Shown here: positions 8,360-40,031 of the stretch, in pieces
Position numbering within the stretch: position 1 is the first letter of the stretch
Layout: every line of letters starts with the position of its first letter
IMG/VR virus record: IMGVR_UViG_3300037140_000076
Location: 32,001 to 96,000 of that record
Length of the DNA: 64,000 bases
Strand: one strand, 5' to 3'
From: a virus
Program-made: the position numbers and the translations under genes
Notes under the pieces: model-generated
What the model was told of the DNA's origin: nothing
The model's database searches: none
The model's input: only the letters and a program-made list of their open reading frames with translations

Positions 8360-8707
8360 TTAATTAGGTCCGTGTAGTGGACACTTTAGATCAATCCATT
8401 GTATCTCAGGAAAAGCATCATCATTATCGCTTTTAGGACAGGTGCATTTAGGCCATAAATAAGATCTATGTCTAATTGCATTAGGTTCAAATCCCCATAA
8501 CATTTGAAGTTCAAATTCAACCTGGGTTAATTGATTGAATAGAATTTTCATAAACGTTCTATTCTTTGTTTTAACTAAAAGAGTAAAAAGATCATATCGC
8601 TCCTTATGTAATGCAACAATCTGACTTACCGTATCAAAATCAAGTTTTCGTTCTCTAATAAGATCTGCATTAACTCCCAATCTATGACCACGATGAGTGA
8701 ACCACAT
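8360..8707 (-). CDS. conserved phage hypothetical protein, Zn-binding
   Basis: ELQMLWGF...CTCPKSDN...CPLHG. Confidence 0.65.
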   Translation of the reverse strand: MWFTHRGHRLGVNADLIRERKLDFDTVSQIVALHKERYDLFTLLVKTKNRTFMKILFNQLTQVEFELQMLWGFEPNAIRHRSYLWPKCTCPKSDNDDAFPEIQWIDLKCPLHGPN

Positions 8708-8709
8708 AA

Positions 8710-9573
8710 TTAAAATTTTAATTCTTTTAGAGATTTGATCCTTTTAAAACCAACATCGTAACGCTGGTTGTGTGGACCATCCATTAGAAAACAACATATA
8801 CCAGCCCGGTTTAACTCCTCAAAATTATCATAGCGATCATCCACAAAAATATCTATACCGGCCTTCTTTATAACATCAATCTTTGATTCTCCTACAGGGA
8901 CCGTAATAACGGGTCTCAGAGGGAATCCGTGAATTCTAAGCCACTCCATTGTTATTTCCGTTGGTATTGGTCTTGAAGTCACGTAAGCATGAGGCTCAAA
9001 ATGAATATCTTCAGGTTTAATCCGGGGTTTAAGTCCCAGGTAAAAGTCATTTAAAATTCCGTCTCTTTTCATTTGTTCAAAACGTTCCGGGATCTTATAA
9101 TCAAAGAACCAGGCGGTTGGGGTATCAATACTCCAATATTTACACCAGTCACCAACCCAATCACAAATCACCTCATCTATATCAAGTCCAATTTTGGGTT
9201 TAGGAATAACATTTATAAGGCGGTCATCTCCTTGAGGAAACCACTTATAGTAGGATACCAAGGCAAGACAGTTCCAGGCAGCATGGGCCATGTGATATAG
9301 ACCAGTATGATTAACACAGGTCCCGGCCTGACAATCTTTACACTCCGGATCATAATCAAAATCTTCACCCCTCTCAAACGCATTTATATGCCTTTTAAGA
9401 GAAGCAACACATTTAGACCACTTCATACCATGAAGCCAGTTATGAGGGGGTTTTGGGTACTTAATTTGACCCTTGGTAAACACTTTAGCCACTTCGTTAA
9501 TAGAGAATGGTTCGAAAAGATCATGGCGTGTTTTAGAATCATTAAGACGACCGCCTGTGCCTAATTCACTCAT
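8710..9573 (-). CDS. dATP/dGTP diphosphohydrolase (DUF5664-like) fused to HAD 5'-nucleotidase-like domain
   Basis: N-terminal KY...NW..GM.WS...SLKRH...GED.D..TGL.H.AHAAWN; C-terminal GLDIDEV and FVDDR. Confidence 0.8.
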   Translation of the reverse strand: MSELGTGGRLNDSKTRHDLFEPFSINEVAKVFTKGQIKYPKPPHNWLHGMKWSKCVASLKRHINAFERGEDFDYDPECKDCQAGTCVNHTGLYHMAHAAWNCLALVSYYKWFPQGDDRLINVIPKPKIGLDIDEVICDWVGDWCKYWSIDTPTAWFFDYKIPERFEQMKRDGILNDFYLGLKPRIKPEDIHFEPHAYVTSRPIPTEITMEWLRIHGFPLRPVITVPVGESKIDVIKKAGIDIFVDDRYDNFEELNRAGICCFLMDGPHNQRYDVGFKRIKSLKELKF

Positions 9574-28292: not shown

Positions 28293-28322
28293 AAAAAAGG
28301 CCCAATATAGAAATACCGGGCC
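28291..28322 (-). terminator. intrinsic terminator after tmRNA
   Basis: minus strand GGCCCGGTAT-ttct-ATATTGGGCC followed by T8. Confidence 0.8.
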
Positions 28323-28347
28323 AATACTTATTTCTAAGGTTTGTCAG

Positions 28348-28705
28348 TGGACTAGTCGGAATTCGAATCCGAGTCTTCAATACAAAAAATCTTACTTTTC
28401 TTTATAGGTTTAGGATAACGATTTAATCTTACTACCGTTCCAAAAGAATTTTCCTACCCTCCACCACTCGGTTTAGGTCCGAGAACCATGCTACACCAGC
28501 CATTTTCTGTTTCAAGGTATGACTACCCATGCATCAAGCTAATTCCAGTTCTTCACTGAAAACCGAAGCGAGTATCGCTTCTCCTTCTGCAATACGTTCA
28601 GCTTTAGACTTTACGTTTGTTTGTTGCATATTTATTAAGGATGTTATATACTGCATCCACCTAAAATAAAACCTTTCAATACTGAATCAATAGCCTTTCT
28701 AGCCC
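28348..28705 (-). ncRNA. ssrA: tmRNA
   Basis: 5' GGGCTAG pairs with 3' CTAGTCC-A including a G3:U70 alanine identity pair; T-arm TCGG-ATTCGAATT-CCGA preceded by GAC; 358 nt; internal ORF ending ELELA-stop. Confidence 0.9.
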
Positions 28706-28710
28706 ATAAA

Positions 28711-28902
28711 TTAAAATAGTAGAGAGTCAAAGAGGTACGGATACGTGAAGACTATATTTCCCAATCTTTATAGTTATTTCCCGTTGCAACAGTAATAACA
28801 CCTCCAGTTTGTCGGAAGCTTTTTTGATTGGTACATCTCGGACACCGTTTCGACCACGCCCATGATCAGTGGGTTTGTGCGGTTCTTCATCTACTATTTT
28901 AA
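28711..28902 (-). ncRNA. unclassified ~190-nt structured RNA
   Basis: 13-bp terminal inverted repeat TTAAAATAGTAGA/TCTACTATTTTAA enclosing several hairpins; no ORF. Confidence 0.5.
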
Positions 28903-29061
28903 AAAAGTTAAAAAATAAGTCCCTTTCCCTTCACTATCCCAGGGTGGTTAATAAGGACTTATTTTTACGTACGCTGTTTTAGGCTACAGATACCTCATAC
29001 GTAACCATTGCCGTTAGAATATAGACCGATTTATGATACTATACAACGGTTGGATTTTTCG

Positions 29062-29131
29062 AACATCCAAGAGGAATCGAACCCCTGCTTCACCCTACAC
29101 GGGTGCGTCCTCCCACTAGACCATAGATGTT
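29062..29131 (-). tRNA. tRNA-like element with aberrant anticodon loop (identity undetermined)
   Basis: acceptor AACATCTA/TGGATGTT, D-arm, T-arm AGGGG-TTCGATT-CCTCT; anticodon arm CACCC-GTGTA-GGGTG. Confidence 0.5.
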
Positions 29132-29180
29132 GCCATAAACACGTTATTCGGAACACAAAGATAAGTAACTTTTTTGAAAC

Positions 29181-29720
29181 TTACAAATATTTAAATTTAT
29201 ATCCAAATGCGTGTTTTTCAAGACCATTTAAAACATGCCAAATAGTTGATTGTCTTATTTTTAATTGTCTTGAAGCTTCCCTTTGAGAAATAAATTTTAT
29301 TTTTTTGTTTTTAGGAGATATAACTAAAATCTTAGTTGGTTTATTTCCCATGACTTTTTTCAATATATCCCTTGCATGTTGTATATTTTGTTGCCTTGTA
29401 CACCATTCAAGCTGAGAGGCCCGGTTATCAAGTTTATTTCCTTTCTTATGATTTATATCAAATCCTTTTTTATATCCTTTTACAAAATGTTTTCCAACTA
29501 ATATATGAACCTGGATTTTAGTAGATTTTCCATTTTTGGTTAAATCTAATTGTAAGTATCCTTTAGCATTTGGAGAAAGAATTCTATTTCTTCCCTTAAA
29601 TTTTTGTAAAATTCCATGTTTGGTTTTTATTATTCTATCAAGAGATTTAATATTACCATAATTACTTATTTGATAATAACCTTTGTATCCTTTTATATCT
29701 TTCCATTCTTTTTTCCTCAT
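29181..29720 (-). CDS. NUMOD4-HNH homing endonuclease
   Basis: WKDIKGYKGYYQISNYG, INHKKGNKLDNRASQLEWCT. Confidence 0.92.
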   Translation of the reverse strand: MRKKEWKDIKGYKGYYQISNYGNIKSLDRIIKTKHGILQKFKGRNRILSPNAKGYLQLDLTKNGKSTKIQVHILVGKHFVKGYKKGFDINHKKGNKLDNRASQLEWCTRQQNIQHARDILKKVMGNKPTKILVISPKNKKIKFISQREASRQLKIRQSTIWHVLNGLEKHAFGYKFKYL

Positions 29721-37452: not shown

Positions 37453-37851
37453 TTATCCGTAAATTATTTCATTCATAACTGCTAATTGAAACCATGCATC
37501 CGCTGTGCTTGCATCATAATTTTGCTGTAATATTTCTGCAAGATCATAGGCATATTTTTCACTCATTGTTTGTTCTCCCTGTTCTATAGAATTCATAGAT
37601 AATTTACCAATTTCTTCGCTTGTTTCAATATCGTGAACGGGAATTTCAAGTCCTGCTTTTAATGCACTCCAAAGTTTCCAAACAAAAGTACCATCAAAAC
37701 AAGATTCCTTTGTTGTAGGTAATTCGGGAACACTGTTAATTAAATTACCTGCATGTTCTTCGAACATATACCAATAATTTGAACCTCCTTCAATGGCTGA
37801 AGTTAATAGATTAGTACGTTGTTCGTCTGTTAGATTGATTGTGATAGGCAT
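37453..37851 (-). CDS. phage hypothetical protein (first gene of the leftward arm)
   Basis: AIEGGSNYW...DASTADAWFQLAV..EIIYG. Confidence 0.75.
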   Translation of the reverse strand: MPITINLTDEQRTNLLTSAIEGGSNYWYMFEEHAGNLINSVPELPTTKESCFDGTFVWKLWSALKAGLEIPVHDIETSEEIGKLSMNSIEQGEQTMSEKYAYDLAEILQQNYDASTADAWFQLAVMNEIIYG

Positions 37852-37875
37852 AAGATATAATTTAGATAATTGAAT

Positions 37876-37910
37876 AAAAAGAAAAGGGAGAATGTAGAAA
37901 CATTCCCCCT
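37876..37910 (-). terminator. intrinsic terminator
   Basis: minus strand AGGGGGAATG-tttcta-CATTCTCCCT followed by TTTCTTTTT. Confidence 0.7.
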
Positions 37911-38685
37911 GCTAAGAAACCCATTGAAAACTAAAAGAATGACCGTCCGTAATAAGATAAAGCAAAGGTACTTGTTATTGGTTATAGTGTTGAAACATTA
38001 GGCGAAGGCTTATAGCTTCAGCGTCCTTGCGATTTGTTAAACTAGTTAACTCTGTGTCCTTAAAGGTAAGGTTACCTTTGCTTTAAAGGTCTGGAAGGTA
38101 GCAATTGAGCTACTACACTTGTTAAGGTGTAAGATTCTGAATTACTCCCAGACACACTATTCCCGAAGGAATAGATTTAAAGATCTTTAATTTTTCACGC
38201 CCTTTTAAACTTCGGAATAACATAGTATTCTTACTAGGTCAGCGATTAGTTAACGCTTACTACTTTCCTGCAACCTGTAAAAACTCTATGTCGTTTTCAC
38301 TATCTAATTGCCCGGATTTTATTCACGTTCAAACATTAACCCGAATGCATCCTATGCATTCATAAGGGTGAAAGGGAAATAAAATCTTTGGTTCGTCCCT
38401 TCCTTCGCTCCATTGCCGATTGTCGCACCTATTCGGGCATCCAATTTTCAGGCAATTCAATACAGGTACCGACCTGCTAACGTGTGGTTACTATCAGATT
38501 CACCACGCTAATCCGTTCCGTTCGTTCTAAAAATACGGTTCTCAGGCCGTTAACTACTTCACCATATACTCAATTACTGACTTAACAAGGTCAGATGAGA
38601 ACATGGCCGGAATAATGATAAGAATTTAGCGAACACACGATTCCCAGGATGGGAAGTGGGCATCAATACCCTCAACTCATTCGCA
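37911..38685 (-). ncRNA. candidate large ornate non-coding RNA (~780 nt)
   Basis: no ORF of 60 aa or more; many hairpins, long-range helices, C(UUCG)G loop; G:U pairs favour the minus strand; promoter-like element upstream, terminator downstream. Confidence 0.6.
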
Positions 38686-38701
38686 TATACAATATTACAA
38701 C

Positions 38702-40031
38702 TATGCGCTGAAACGTACAAGAGTAAATATACTCATTCTTTAATAATAGCCAATATATAGTTATCCACAATATTTGGAAGTCTCAATATTATTTCGTATG
38801 CGCTAAAACGTACTATGCGAATATCTTTGTATATGTGACAGGATATTTGATTGATCCTATTAGCCCCCTTTGGGGGTTGGGGGCTGTAGACAACCAGAAG
38901 GAATAAATAATGAATTCCCCCTCCCCGCTTCAATCCATTACCGACAACCTGTCATAATCTTATGCGCTAAAACGTATATGCGCTATAACGTACATGGATT
39001 GGAATTAGTCCTGTTGTGGGGTTTTGGGCCTTTTAATAGACAATATTCTCTAAAAGGGACCGCATTCCCAGGACGGTCCTATCCTCCCAAAACAAACCAC
39101 CACCCCCATCCCCAGACTCATTCCGGTATGTACACTTTAACGCATATACATTATAAATCATATTGGTTATGTCAACTACTATGTATTACCATGTATGTTT
39201 TAGCGCATATTCCCAATCCCCCACTTATTTTTAAAATTGGACAGAATCTAGGATTGGGAATTGAAAACAGAATTGGGAACGATGCCGGGGGTGGGAGGGC
39301 AGTCCCAAAGTTGGACGGCACCCAAGTTGATGGTGCGTGTATTGGAGGGTATATATAATATATTTTGAAATGTAAATTTAACCTATTATCTTTATATTAT
39401 GGATCAACAATGGAAAGACATACCAGGATATGAAGAATTGTATCAGGTGAGCGATATGGGTCATATTAGGGGCCTCAAACCCTCTCCCCGCTTAAAGGGT
39501 ACCTATCTCATACCTGTCTTACATAATGGAAAGTATCATCGTGTACGCTTTTTCAAGGAAGGTAAGAGAAAATCATTTTTTATACATATACTTGTTGGTA
39601 AAGCGTTCGTTCCCAACCCCTTAAACCTTACAGAGATTAATCATAAGAAGGGTAATAAACTTGATAATAGGGCTTCAGAACTTGAATGGACTACAAGGCA
39701 AAATAATATTCTTCACTCTTATAGAGTGCTCGGTACTAAATCAAAAGGGAGAAGTTACCCATGTTGTAGATTAAAACCAGGTTATTTTTCAGTTATATAA
39801 TTTTCCCGCTTCTAATCTAAGCGGGTTTTTTGGGTCCTGTTTAAAAACTTTAACATTCCTTTGGGAATTTAATTGATTTAAAAACCGTATCTTTGCCACC
39901 GGCCTTCCGTACTAAGGCCCTAACAGGCCGCACAAGGACGGTAAGATGGGGGATACTATATAAAAGACCCCCCCCCTCCTCTTCTCTCTAACAATAATGT
40001 ACGCTTTAGCGCATATGCGTTAAAACGTACA
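38702..40031. repeat. eight dispersed 18-bp repeats (consensus TATGCGCTAAAACGTACA) at the strand switch
   Basis: direct copies at 38702, 38797, 38961, 38977, 40014; inverted copies at 39129, 39192, 39998. Confidence 0.85.
39399..39800 (+). CDS. NUMOD4-HNH homing endonuclease
   Basis: WKDIPGYEELYQVSDMG, INHKKGNKLDNRASELEW. Confidence 0.9.
   Translation: MDQQWKDIPGYEELYQVSDMGHIRGLKPSPRLKGTYLIPVLHNGKYHRVRFFKEGKRKSFFIHILVGKAFVPNPLNLTEINHKKGNKLDNRASELEWTTRQNNILHSYRVLGTKSKGRSYPCCRLKPGYFSVI

Follow-up and report, generated by a model that had tools for sequence, protein, structure and literature searches.

A candidate large structured noncoding RNA, probably of a new class, at the head of the early arm of an uncultured phage

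Is a stretch of phage DNA of about 800 nucleotides, free of genes and placed where the leftward early arm begins, the gene for a large structured RNA, a leader of the genes behind it, a string of smaller RNAs, or a signal that acts in the DNA itself? This question is raised by positions 37876-38700 of the window, by which we mean the whole stretch of 64,000 nucleotides analysed here (bases 32001-96000 of the 112-kb IMG/VR phage record IMGVR_UViG_3300037140_000076, from an uncultured phage). Judged from the sequence, our best reading is that the stretch is the gene for a discrete, structured minus-strand noncoding RNA of about 805 nucleotides that belongs to an uncatalogued family, and we put the probability of this reading at roughly 0.6.

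A gene-free stretch with predicted ends

The leftward arm of this phage includes genes for DNA polymerase, helicase and RNA ligase, and the rightward arm carries tRNA arrays, the terminase and the portal gene. The Bacteroidota promoter consensus TTTG-N17-22-TAnnTTTG is over-represented in the window (12 copies vs. 3.9 expected), so the host is probably a member of the Bacteroidota; the rightward copies are grouped around the tRNA arrays and just upstream of the portal gene. By terminase, the closest cultured relative is the cyanophage Leptolyngbya phage Lbo-JY46 (41%), followed by Cellulophaga phages (28%). The nearest tRNA genes lie 4.6 kb from the stretch on one side (43288 onward) and 8.7 kb from it on the other (29061-29130). 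Another ORF-free unit, a second noncoding RNA operon, occupies 28293-29187 on the minus strand and has a full-consensus promoter (29156-29187). ARAGORN places a tRNA-Thr at 29061-29130 in this unit and, at 28347-28705, a tmRNA that encodes a tag peptide, neither of which is returned by Rfam cmscan at gathering score.

The only homologue of the stretch that we reached is in the phage record IMGVR_UViG_3300050123_000043 (G001, hereafter the sister phage), whose terminase protein is 98% identical; no carrier of this RNA is known besides these two phages. The sister genome shares 87-98% nucleotide identity with the window across most aligned segments, and the genes flanking the stretch are 97-98% identical.

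The preliminary description of this DNA had called the stretch ORF-free, and this holds: no ORF of more than 50 amino acids is found within 37876-38700 under translation table 11, table 4 or with TAG read as Q. In the wider interval 37852-38869, the three codes likewise give no ORF of more than 50 amino acids except for frames entering from the flanks, and ORFs of at least 70 amino acids are absent. None of the ORFs of at least 25 amino acids in the stretch is credibly conserved in both phages, and most of them acquire stop codons or frameshifts in the sister phage. Three remain open there, two in near-invariant sequence and one, with a 3-nucleotide indel, in a divergent block; none of the three has a coding pattern. 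Small conserved peptides were therefore rejected as an explanation. A recoded protein gene was rejected as well, since neither table 4 nor reading TAG as Q opens a long frame and the phage has no suppressor tRNA. The stretch had also been described as richer in GC than its flanks, which is correct relative to the leftward genes (G+C of 0.35-0.43 vs. 0.30-0.34), but the right flank is equally G+C-rich.

The predicted RNA body (37878-38683, minus strand) is about 805 nucleotides long, with its ends deduced from a promoter-like site and a terminator, and with a start predicted near 38683. The promoter-like site (38690-38721, minus strand) consists of a -33 element CTTG (38721-38718), a 20-nucleotide spacer and a -7 element TAATATTG (38697-38690), the last of which is the promoter-like box of the preliminary description. 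As a sequence match, it deviates from the Bacteroidota-type consensus by one mismatch per element at the consensus spacing, and it is 100% identical in the sister phage. One plus-strand copy of a 15-bp repeat, ATGCGCTNAAACGTA, lies inside the promoter spacer (38703-38717) and is a putative operator or iteron; seven copies of this repeat are found at 38703-40029, compared with 0.18 expected. A second promoter-like site, TTTC-N21-TACCTTTG with its -7 box at 37970-37963, is located within the RNA gene and is also upstream of the terminator. The intrinsic terminator (37876-37910, minus strand), likewise present as first described, has an 11-bp stem (37910-37885) followed by a U tract, and is conserved in the sister phage.

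To the right of the promoter-like site, 38700-39398 is apparently noncoding as well. Its sole frame (38870-39358, TTG start, 162 amino acids) is of low complexity, belongs to no family and includes 15-bp repeats. Also present in this region are a perfect DnaA box (TTATCCACA, 38761-38769), a GGACCG...CGGTCC hairpin, and C-rich tracts followed by G-rich ones. The sister phage matches it at 94% overall identity, and the differences are concentrated almost entirely in a single short patch and at the right end. The RNA gene and this region jointly form a gene-free interval of about 1.5 kb where the arms diverge, probably a control region or origin. Farther right, an HNH endonuclease gene (39399-39800; phrog_59/959) is missing in the sister phage, whose alignment jumps from 39349 to 39844, and is likely to be a mobile homing-endonuclease insertion.

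Conserved blocks, variable hairpins and the paired strand

Compared with the sister phage, the RNA region is a mosaic, in which four blocks are 98-100% identical (alignment columns 6-160, 312-586, 622-649 and 751-808) and three short blocks are only 50-65% identical (columns 161-311, 65%; 587-621, 54%; 650-750, 50%). The divergence of these short blocks is far above the local background, because the flanking genes are 97-98% identical. Most likely, they stem either from diversifying selection or from patchwise recombination with relatives that are further removed. Where the RNA body is 98% identical, nearly all differences are located in loops, at unpaired positions or at wobble-compatible stem positions. 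The similarity stops within about 20 nucleotides past the terminator, and the first gene after it is not shared, being a gene of 132 amino acids here (phrog_2355, 37453-37851) and an unrelated ORF of 76 amino acids in the sister phage (L005:1273-1503). Thus, the RNA and its terminator behave as a separate module.

Read 5′ to 3′ on the minus strand, to which all features of the predicted RNA below refer, the RNA begins with a conserved block (38561-38671, 98% identical) of two hairpins (38671-38658 and 38655-38641) and one long hairpin (38607-38561), whose inner stem (38594-38577) carries the loop CUUGUUAA. Among the three differences in this block, two are in the loop of the first hairpin and the third comes shortly after the 3′ end of the long hairpin, at a position that is unpaired in the consensus. 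Variable block 1 (38412-38550, 65% identity) has hairpins at 38550-38535, 38506-38484, 38477-38462 and 38456-38412, with eleven double-compensatory pairs and with loops that are kept (GAAUCUGAUAGUA vs. GAAACUGAAAGUA; GAAUA in both). The conserved core that follows (38155-38407) is near-invariant (98%) over about 250 nucleotides and includes the purine tract GGAGCGAAGGAAGGGACGAACC, hairpins at 38361-38343 (GAAUGCAU-AGG-AUGCAUUC), 38300-38277 and 38241-38218, and a cUUCGg hairpin at 38174-38157, which exists on the minus strand only. The five differences in the core comprise two wobble-compatible changes in predicted stems, one change in a loop and two indels at unpaired positions. Also in the core is a 14-nucleotide perfect palindrome at 38190-38177 (UUAAAGAUCUUUAA; listed as TTAAAGATCTTTAA at 38177-38190), which could form either a hairpin or an intermolecular duplex. 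RNAalifold places long-range pairs in the core as well (e.g., 38407-38396 with 38175-38164), which compete with the cUUCGg hairpin, are invariant in both phages and are prediction only.

The 3′ part of the predicted RNA is built of two enclosed domains and a hairpin. The first domain (38089-38153) is closed by the invariant 9-bp helix GUCUGGGAG/CUUCCAGAC (38153-38145/38097-38089) and holds variable block 2, in which the hairpins 38128-38115 and 38113-38098 (loop UCAAUU kept) show two double-compensatory and three one-sided changes. The second (37958-38085) is closed by a 13-bp perfect helix (37958-37970/38073-38085) and holds variable block 3. This block has a hairpin (38071-38058) that keeps its loop CCUU while two of its pairs change in compensation, and a hypervariable part of about 85 nucleotides at 50% identity, with an 18-nucleotide deletion in the sister phage. 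The 3′ hairpin (37920-37956) has a 13-nucleotide loop, GGUCAUUCUUUUA, that is invariant in both phages and repeats CAUUCU, a part of the 3′ arm of the terminator; this loop may serve as an alternative pairing partner for the terminator (by eye, nine pairs, four of them wobbles). Both closing helices, the cUUCGg hairpin and the hairpin at 38361-38343 had been picked out from the sequence in the preliminary description and are all present. Its helix 38306-38314/38449-38457 fares worse, since it has an A.C mismatch in the sister phage, and the local hairpin 38456-38412 covaries instead.

The RNAalifold consensus of the two sequences contains 15 double-compensatory pairs, 10 one-sided wobble-compatible changes and 0 broken pairs, counted on a structure that itself comes from these two sequences. 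The energy of this consensus, -203.2 kcal/mol, is about 5.5 standard deviations lower than that obtained with random substitutions at the same 108 columns (-174.9 ± 5.1 kcal/mol). Moving the 3′ partners by 1-3 columns abolishes the covariation signal, again for a structure derived from these two sequences. In an unbiased test, in which one copy was folded and the other scored, the signal is weak (P = 0.07 and P = 0.004), as expected of a minimum free energy (MFE) structure from a single sequence of 850 nucleotides. The z-scores of the single-sequence MFE are modest, and slightly better for the plus strand (-3.8) than for the minus strand (-2.6). The largest variable hairpin, 38456-38412, takes the same shape in independent folds of the two divergent copies.

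Compensatory change is found in seven local hairpins in this comparison of two sequences, with covarying spans of at most 45 nucleotides, and the contiguous helices of at least 5 pairs with two double changes are all local hairpins with conserved loops. From the window to the sister phage, stems are exchanged from ACGG/CCGU to CCAG/CUGG, from GUGGU/ACCAC to AUGCU/AGCGU, from CAGGU/ACCUG to CGGGU/ACCCG, from GUAGC/GCUAC to GUGUC/GAUAC, from CCUUA/UAAGG to ACCUA/UAGGU, and from AUUGCC/GGCAAU to GUUACC/GGUAGC, the last with its inner stem altered too. The loops are the same or nearly so in the two phages. No long-range helix has covariation support, and the long-range helices are invariant in both copies. 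The "ornate" RNA first envisaged is therefore borne out for local hairpins of up to 45 nucleotides in span, and its long-range fold is a prediction only. The homologue search proposed along with it gave one homologue, with compensatory changes in its hairpins, and so a comparison of two sequences.

With covariation confined to local hairpins, a set of small RNAs or a leader is conceivable as well. It is quite unlikely, in our estimate, that several small, separately folding RNA modules are cut from one precursor, as in the stable-RNA regions of T4-like phages. The absence of any supported long-range pair fits such modules, as do the invariant closing helices, which enclose domains of 65 and 128 nucleotides, and the presence of the other noncoding RNA operon (28293-29187) in the same phage. 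However, ARAGORN and Rfam give no tRNA-like element, ribozyme or other module inside the stretch, no unit is repeated within it, its sole internal terminator-like match (hairpin 38362-38342) has a weak U tract, and the invariant core of 250 nucleotides exceeds the typical length of a small-RNA module.

The strand asymmetry of the pairing, which had been noticed from G:U pairs, proved real. With RNAalifold, the alignment reaches -203.2 kcal/mol on the minus strand and -158.1 kcal/mol on the plus strand, a margin of 45 kcal/mol, and one-sided wobble-compatible changes number 10 and 2, respectively. Several covarying hairpins contain G.U pairs that would be A.C if read from the other strand. This minus-strand bias, in the same orientation as the promoter-like site and the terminator, argues against palindromes of double-stranded DNA; single-stranded DNA of the same sense would also allow G.T pairs and is compatible with the sequence.

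Hairpins that act at the DNA level, as a replication origin or as another single-stranded-DNA or protein-binding signal beside the iteron and DnaA-box region, are nevertheless very improbable. The stretch does adjoin the seven 15-bp repeats and the perfect DnaA box, the cumulative GC skew has its minimum around 39100-39300, and the plus strand, too, folds better than shuffled sequences. Against these points stand the asymmetric pairing, the imperfect and bulged stems, unlike palindromes of the protein-binding type, the conservation in loops rather than in stems, and the flanking promoter-like site and terminator of one orientation. The preliminary description had itself named DNA-level palindromes as what would speak against an RNA, and the pairing found here is asymmetric, with stems that vary while loops are kept.

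Other kinds of RNA were considered and rejected. A P4-like immunity RNA with complementary variable segments does not fit, as no covarying long-range pairing connects the variable blocks; neither does a ToxI- or CRISPR-type repeat-unit RNA, as the stretch has no direct repeats. An antisense or trans target within the phage genome was also sought, and only chance matches of up to 14 nucleotides were found. On the minus strand of 37876-38700, ACCUU occurs 7 times (1.0 expected), with several copies, as placed by eye, in stems, and CCUU occurs 12 times (4.0 expected). AUAG recurs near hairpin loops, and neither it nor ACCUU lends itself to interpretation. By eye, two conserved hairpin loops begin with CCUU and the invariant purine tract has tandem AAGG, a possible loop-strand contact.

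The terminator, the early operon and a proposed working

The terminator ends 25 nucleotides ahead of the ATG (37851) of the first leftward gene. Behind it lies a 3.8-kb leftward operon (37851 to 34039) of 11 small genes, hardly any of which can be placed in a known family. No intergenic gap in it exceeds 70 nucleotides, so there is no other obvious promoter site there. With both promoter-like sites upstream, the simplest view is therefore that transcription of the whole operon would cross the terminator. A mini-ORF of 20 codons (MGFLAGGMFLHSPFSFYSII*, 37862-37924, minus strand) runs through the terminator and stops 10 nucleotides before the ATG of the next gene. Its ATG and open frame are kept in the sister phage (34 codons by eye), with a frameshifted tail, so that the peptide is not conserved. 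The mini-ORF may be a product of chance or a coupled-translation valve, and its membership in the element is uncertain.

These features bear on the reading in which the stretch acts in cis only, as a very long structured 5′ leader whose fold, together with the mini-ORF, would set the choice between stopping at 37885-37910 and reading through. This would be attenuation or antitermination, like the coupled translation of the pyrBI type or the antitermination leaders of phages. We regard it as unlikely. The terminator's place so close to an operon that lacks room for a promoter of its own speaks for such a leader, as do the mini-ORF across the terminator, kept open in the sister phage, and the CAUUCU shared by the preceding hairpin's loop and the terminator 3′ arm. 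However, an open frame of 20 codons is not unusual, the peptide is not conserved, and we know of no cis-regulatory leader that needs about 800 nucleotides, some 20 helices and a near-invariant core of 250 nucleotides. Moreover, the RNA is not bound to any one gene, for the downstream gene has been exchanged between the two phages while the RNA was retained.

Under the preferred reading, a discrete RNA, transcription would start at the operator-overlapped promoter of the Bacteroidota type at about 38690-38721, and most of it would end at the intrinsic terminator (37910-37885). The RNA would thus come first among the products of the leftward early arm and would probably also be the most plentiful of them. 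It would consist of a conserved core and peripheral hairpins, in which stems are free to vary and loops are fixed. We infer that the RNA particle may act in trans, with its core and loops binding or scaffolding a host or phage factor, or other copies of the RNA. Some polymerases would pass the terminator into the early genes, and since the terminator lies 25 nucleotides ahead of the first of them, the RNA unit would also limit transcription into the 11 early genes. That there is one transcript with one large fold, an action in trans and gating of the operon is what we infer from the sequence as a whole.

The variable blocks (50-65% identical) lie within flanks that are 97-100% identical, a contrast that may reflect diversifying selection on the hairpins, such as for escape from an RNA-targeting defence or for altered binding specificity. 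A fuller proposal, in which hairpin cassettes are exchanged between near-identical phages and, jointly, the terminator crossed by the mini-ORF serves as a translation-sensitive valve of the early operon, seems unlikely when both parts are taken together.

Family searches and comparison with known large phage RNAs

A cmscan against Rfam, proposed at the outset, gave no family at gathering score for either copy, and with E ≤ 10 only terminator-driven or far sub-threshold matches. The scope of this Rfam 15 search included introns, RNase P, tmRNA, 6S, ribozymes, riboswitches, OLE, HEARO and raiA. For GOLLD (RF02032, gathering score 150 bits), there is no match with E ≤ 10 in either phage record, and none by cmscan of the window or the region. 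For ROOL (RF03087, gathering score 99.1 bits), there is similarly no match with E ≤ 10 in either phage record, a negative that also leans on cmscan, as the control genomes likewise gave no match in the ROOL search. ARAGORN found no tRNA-like element inside the stretch. The earlier judgement that the RNA can be assigned to neither GOLLD nor ROOL, and may be a new class, thus agrees with explicit searches that are negative for both and for all the other Rfam 15 families.

Further copies of the RNA were sought in several collections. It was not found by blastn of both copies against 50,697 GenBank phage records, beyond the two phages by three exact-motif scans of IMG/VR, or by nhmmer on 80 IMG/VR loci of the neighbouring cupin family. 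In 401 sampled Bacteroidota genomes, only chance matches inside protein genes were obtained. A search for homologues via the terminase family in IMG/VR, JGI metagenomes and GTDB yielded little. Terminase homologues of 64-77% identity occur on long Logan and JGI contigs, several of them 94-118 kb in length, and the contig of one relative (G004, terminase 56%) lacks the whole early region and is therefore uninformative on the RNA. The RNA was not found in Lbo-JY46 (PP438436.1), whose arm does not begin with an ORF-free stretch of this kind. This phage shares the tRNA order Pro-Thr-Phe-Gln-His with the window (at 118680-123220 of its record), and it has an unannotated gap of 593 nucleotides in the early arm (8411-9003), which matches nothing in Rfam and folds with a weak z-score of -1.8.

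Because the stretch is noncoding in both phages, contains covarying hairpins, pairs preferentially on the minus strand and matches no family, we describe it as a candidate large noncoding RNA, probably of a new class. It groups with GOLLD, ROOL, the 0.8-kb RNA of ICP1 and the long noncoding RNAs (lncRNAs) of phage K by size and phage origin, and is a member of no catalogued family. Like GOLLD, it is phage-borne, about 800 nucleotides long, noncoding and multi-domain, with conserved and variable parts. Unlike GOLLD, its host range is probably Bacteroidota, the GOLLD covariance model finds no match here, and the nearest tRNA gene is 4.6 kb away, whereas GOLLD and ROOL are typically adjacent to tRNA genes. 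ROOL is similarly a large structured RNA that is often found in phages and prophages, but its model has 574 positions compared with about 805 nucleotides here, and neither a model match nor shared motifs were found. GOLLD, ROOL and OLE are RNA-only homo-oligomers by cryo-EM, GOLLD forming a cage (PMC12286853). The 14-nucleotide palindrome and the palindromic loop cores are only a lead toward a homo-oligomer here.

In the vibriophage ICP1, a 1-kb gap without ORFs gives rise to an RNA of about 800 nucleotides that is the most abundant of all the phage transcripts (PMC7567579), and the staphylococcal phage K has abundant lncRNAs near tRNA genes (PMC9241854). The present locus resembles these in having an ORF-free stretch of about 1 kb in a lytic phage and a predicted RNA of about 0.8 kb, whose expression is deduced from sequence. 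It differs from them in having no BLAST-level similarity to any GenBank phage record and in its place as the first element of the early arm, immediately before a terminator and the first early gene, which is particular to this RNA. The trans role suggested above would be the same open-ended role that has been proposed for GOLLD, ROOL and the 0.8-kb RNA of ICP1.

The order of promoter, terminated transcript and operon recalls another kind of system. In the pR'-tR' 6S transcript of lambda and in the pyrBI leader, a promoter and a terminated leader precede an operon that needs read-through, and in pyrBI a short ORF runs through the terminator, as the mini-ORF does here. Leaders of the lambda 6S and pyrBI types are 40-200 nucleotides long and are not conserved multi-domain folds, and neither an antiterminator protein nor a pause site was identified at the present locus.

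To our knowledge, none of the abundant large structured phage RNAs (GOLLD, ROOL, the ICP1 RNA and the phage K lncRNAs) has a known function, and each new unrelated family of this kind is a further test case. The RNA described here has clean predicted ends and a near-invariant core of about 250 nucleotides, and its separate variable hairpins mark which loops matter. What is particular to it, compared with the known RNAs, is that it would form the first unit of the early arm, before a terminator, and that its hypervariable hairpins differ like cassettes between near-identical phages. Its position predicts that the RNA is the first early transcript, with a terminator ahead of the early genes. Should selection lie behind the cassette-like variation, this would give a clue to the interaction partners of such RNAs.
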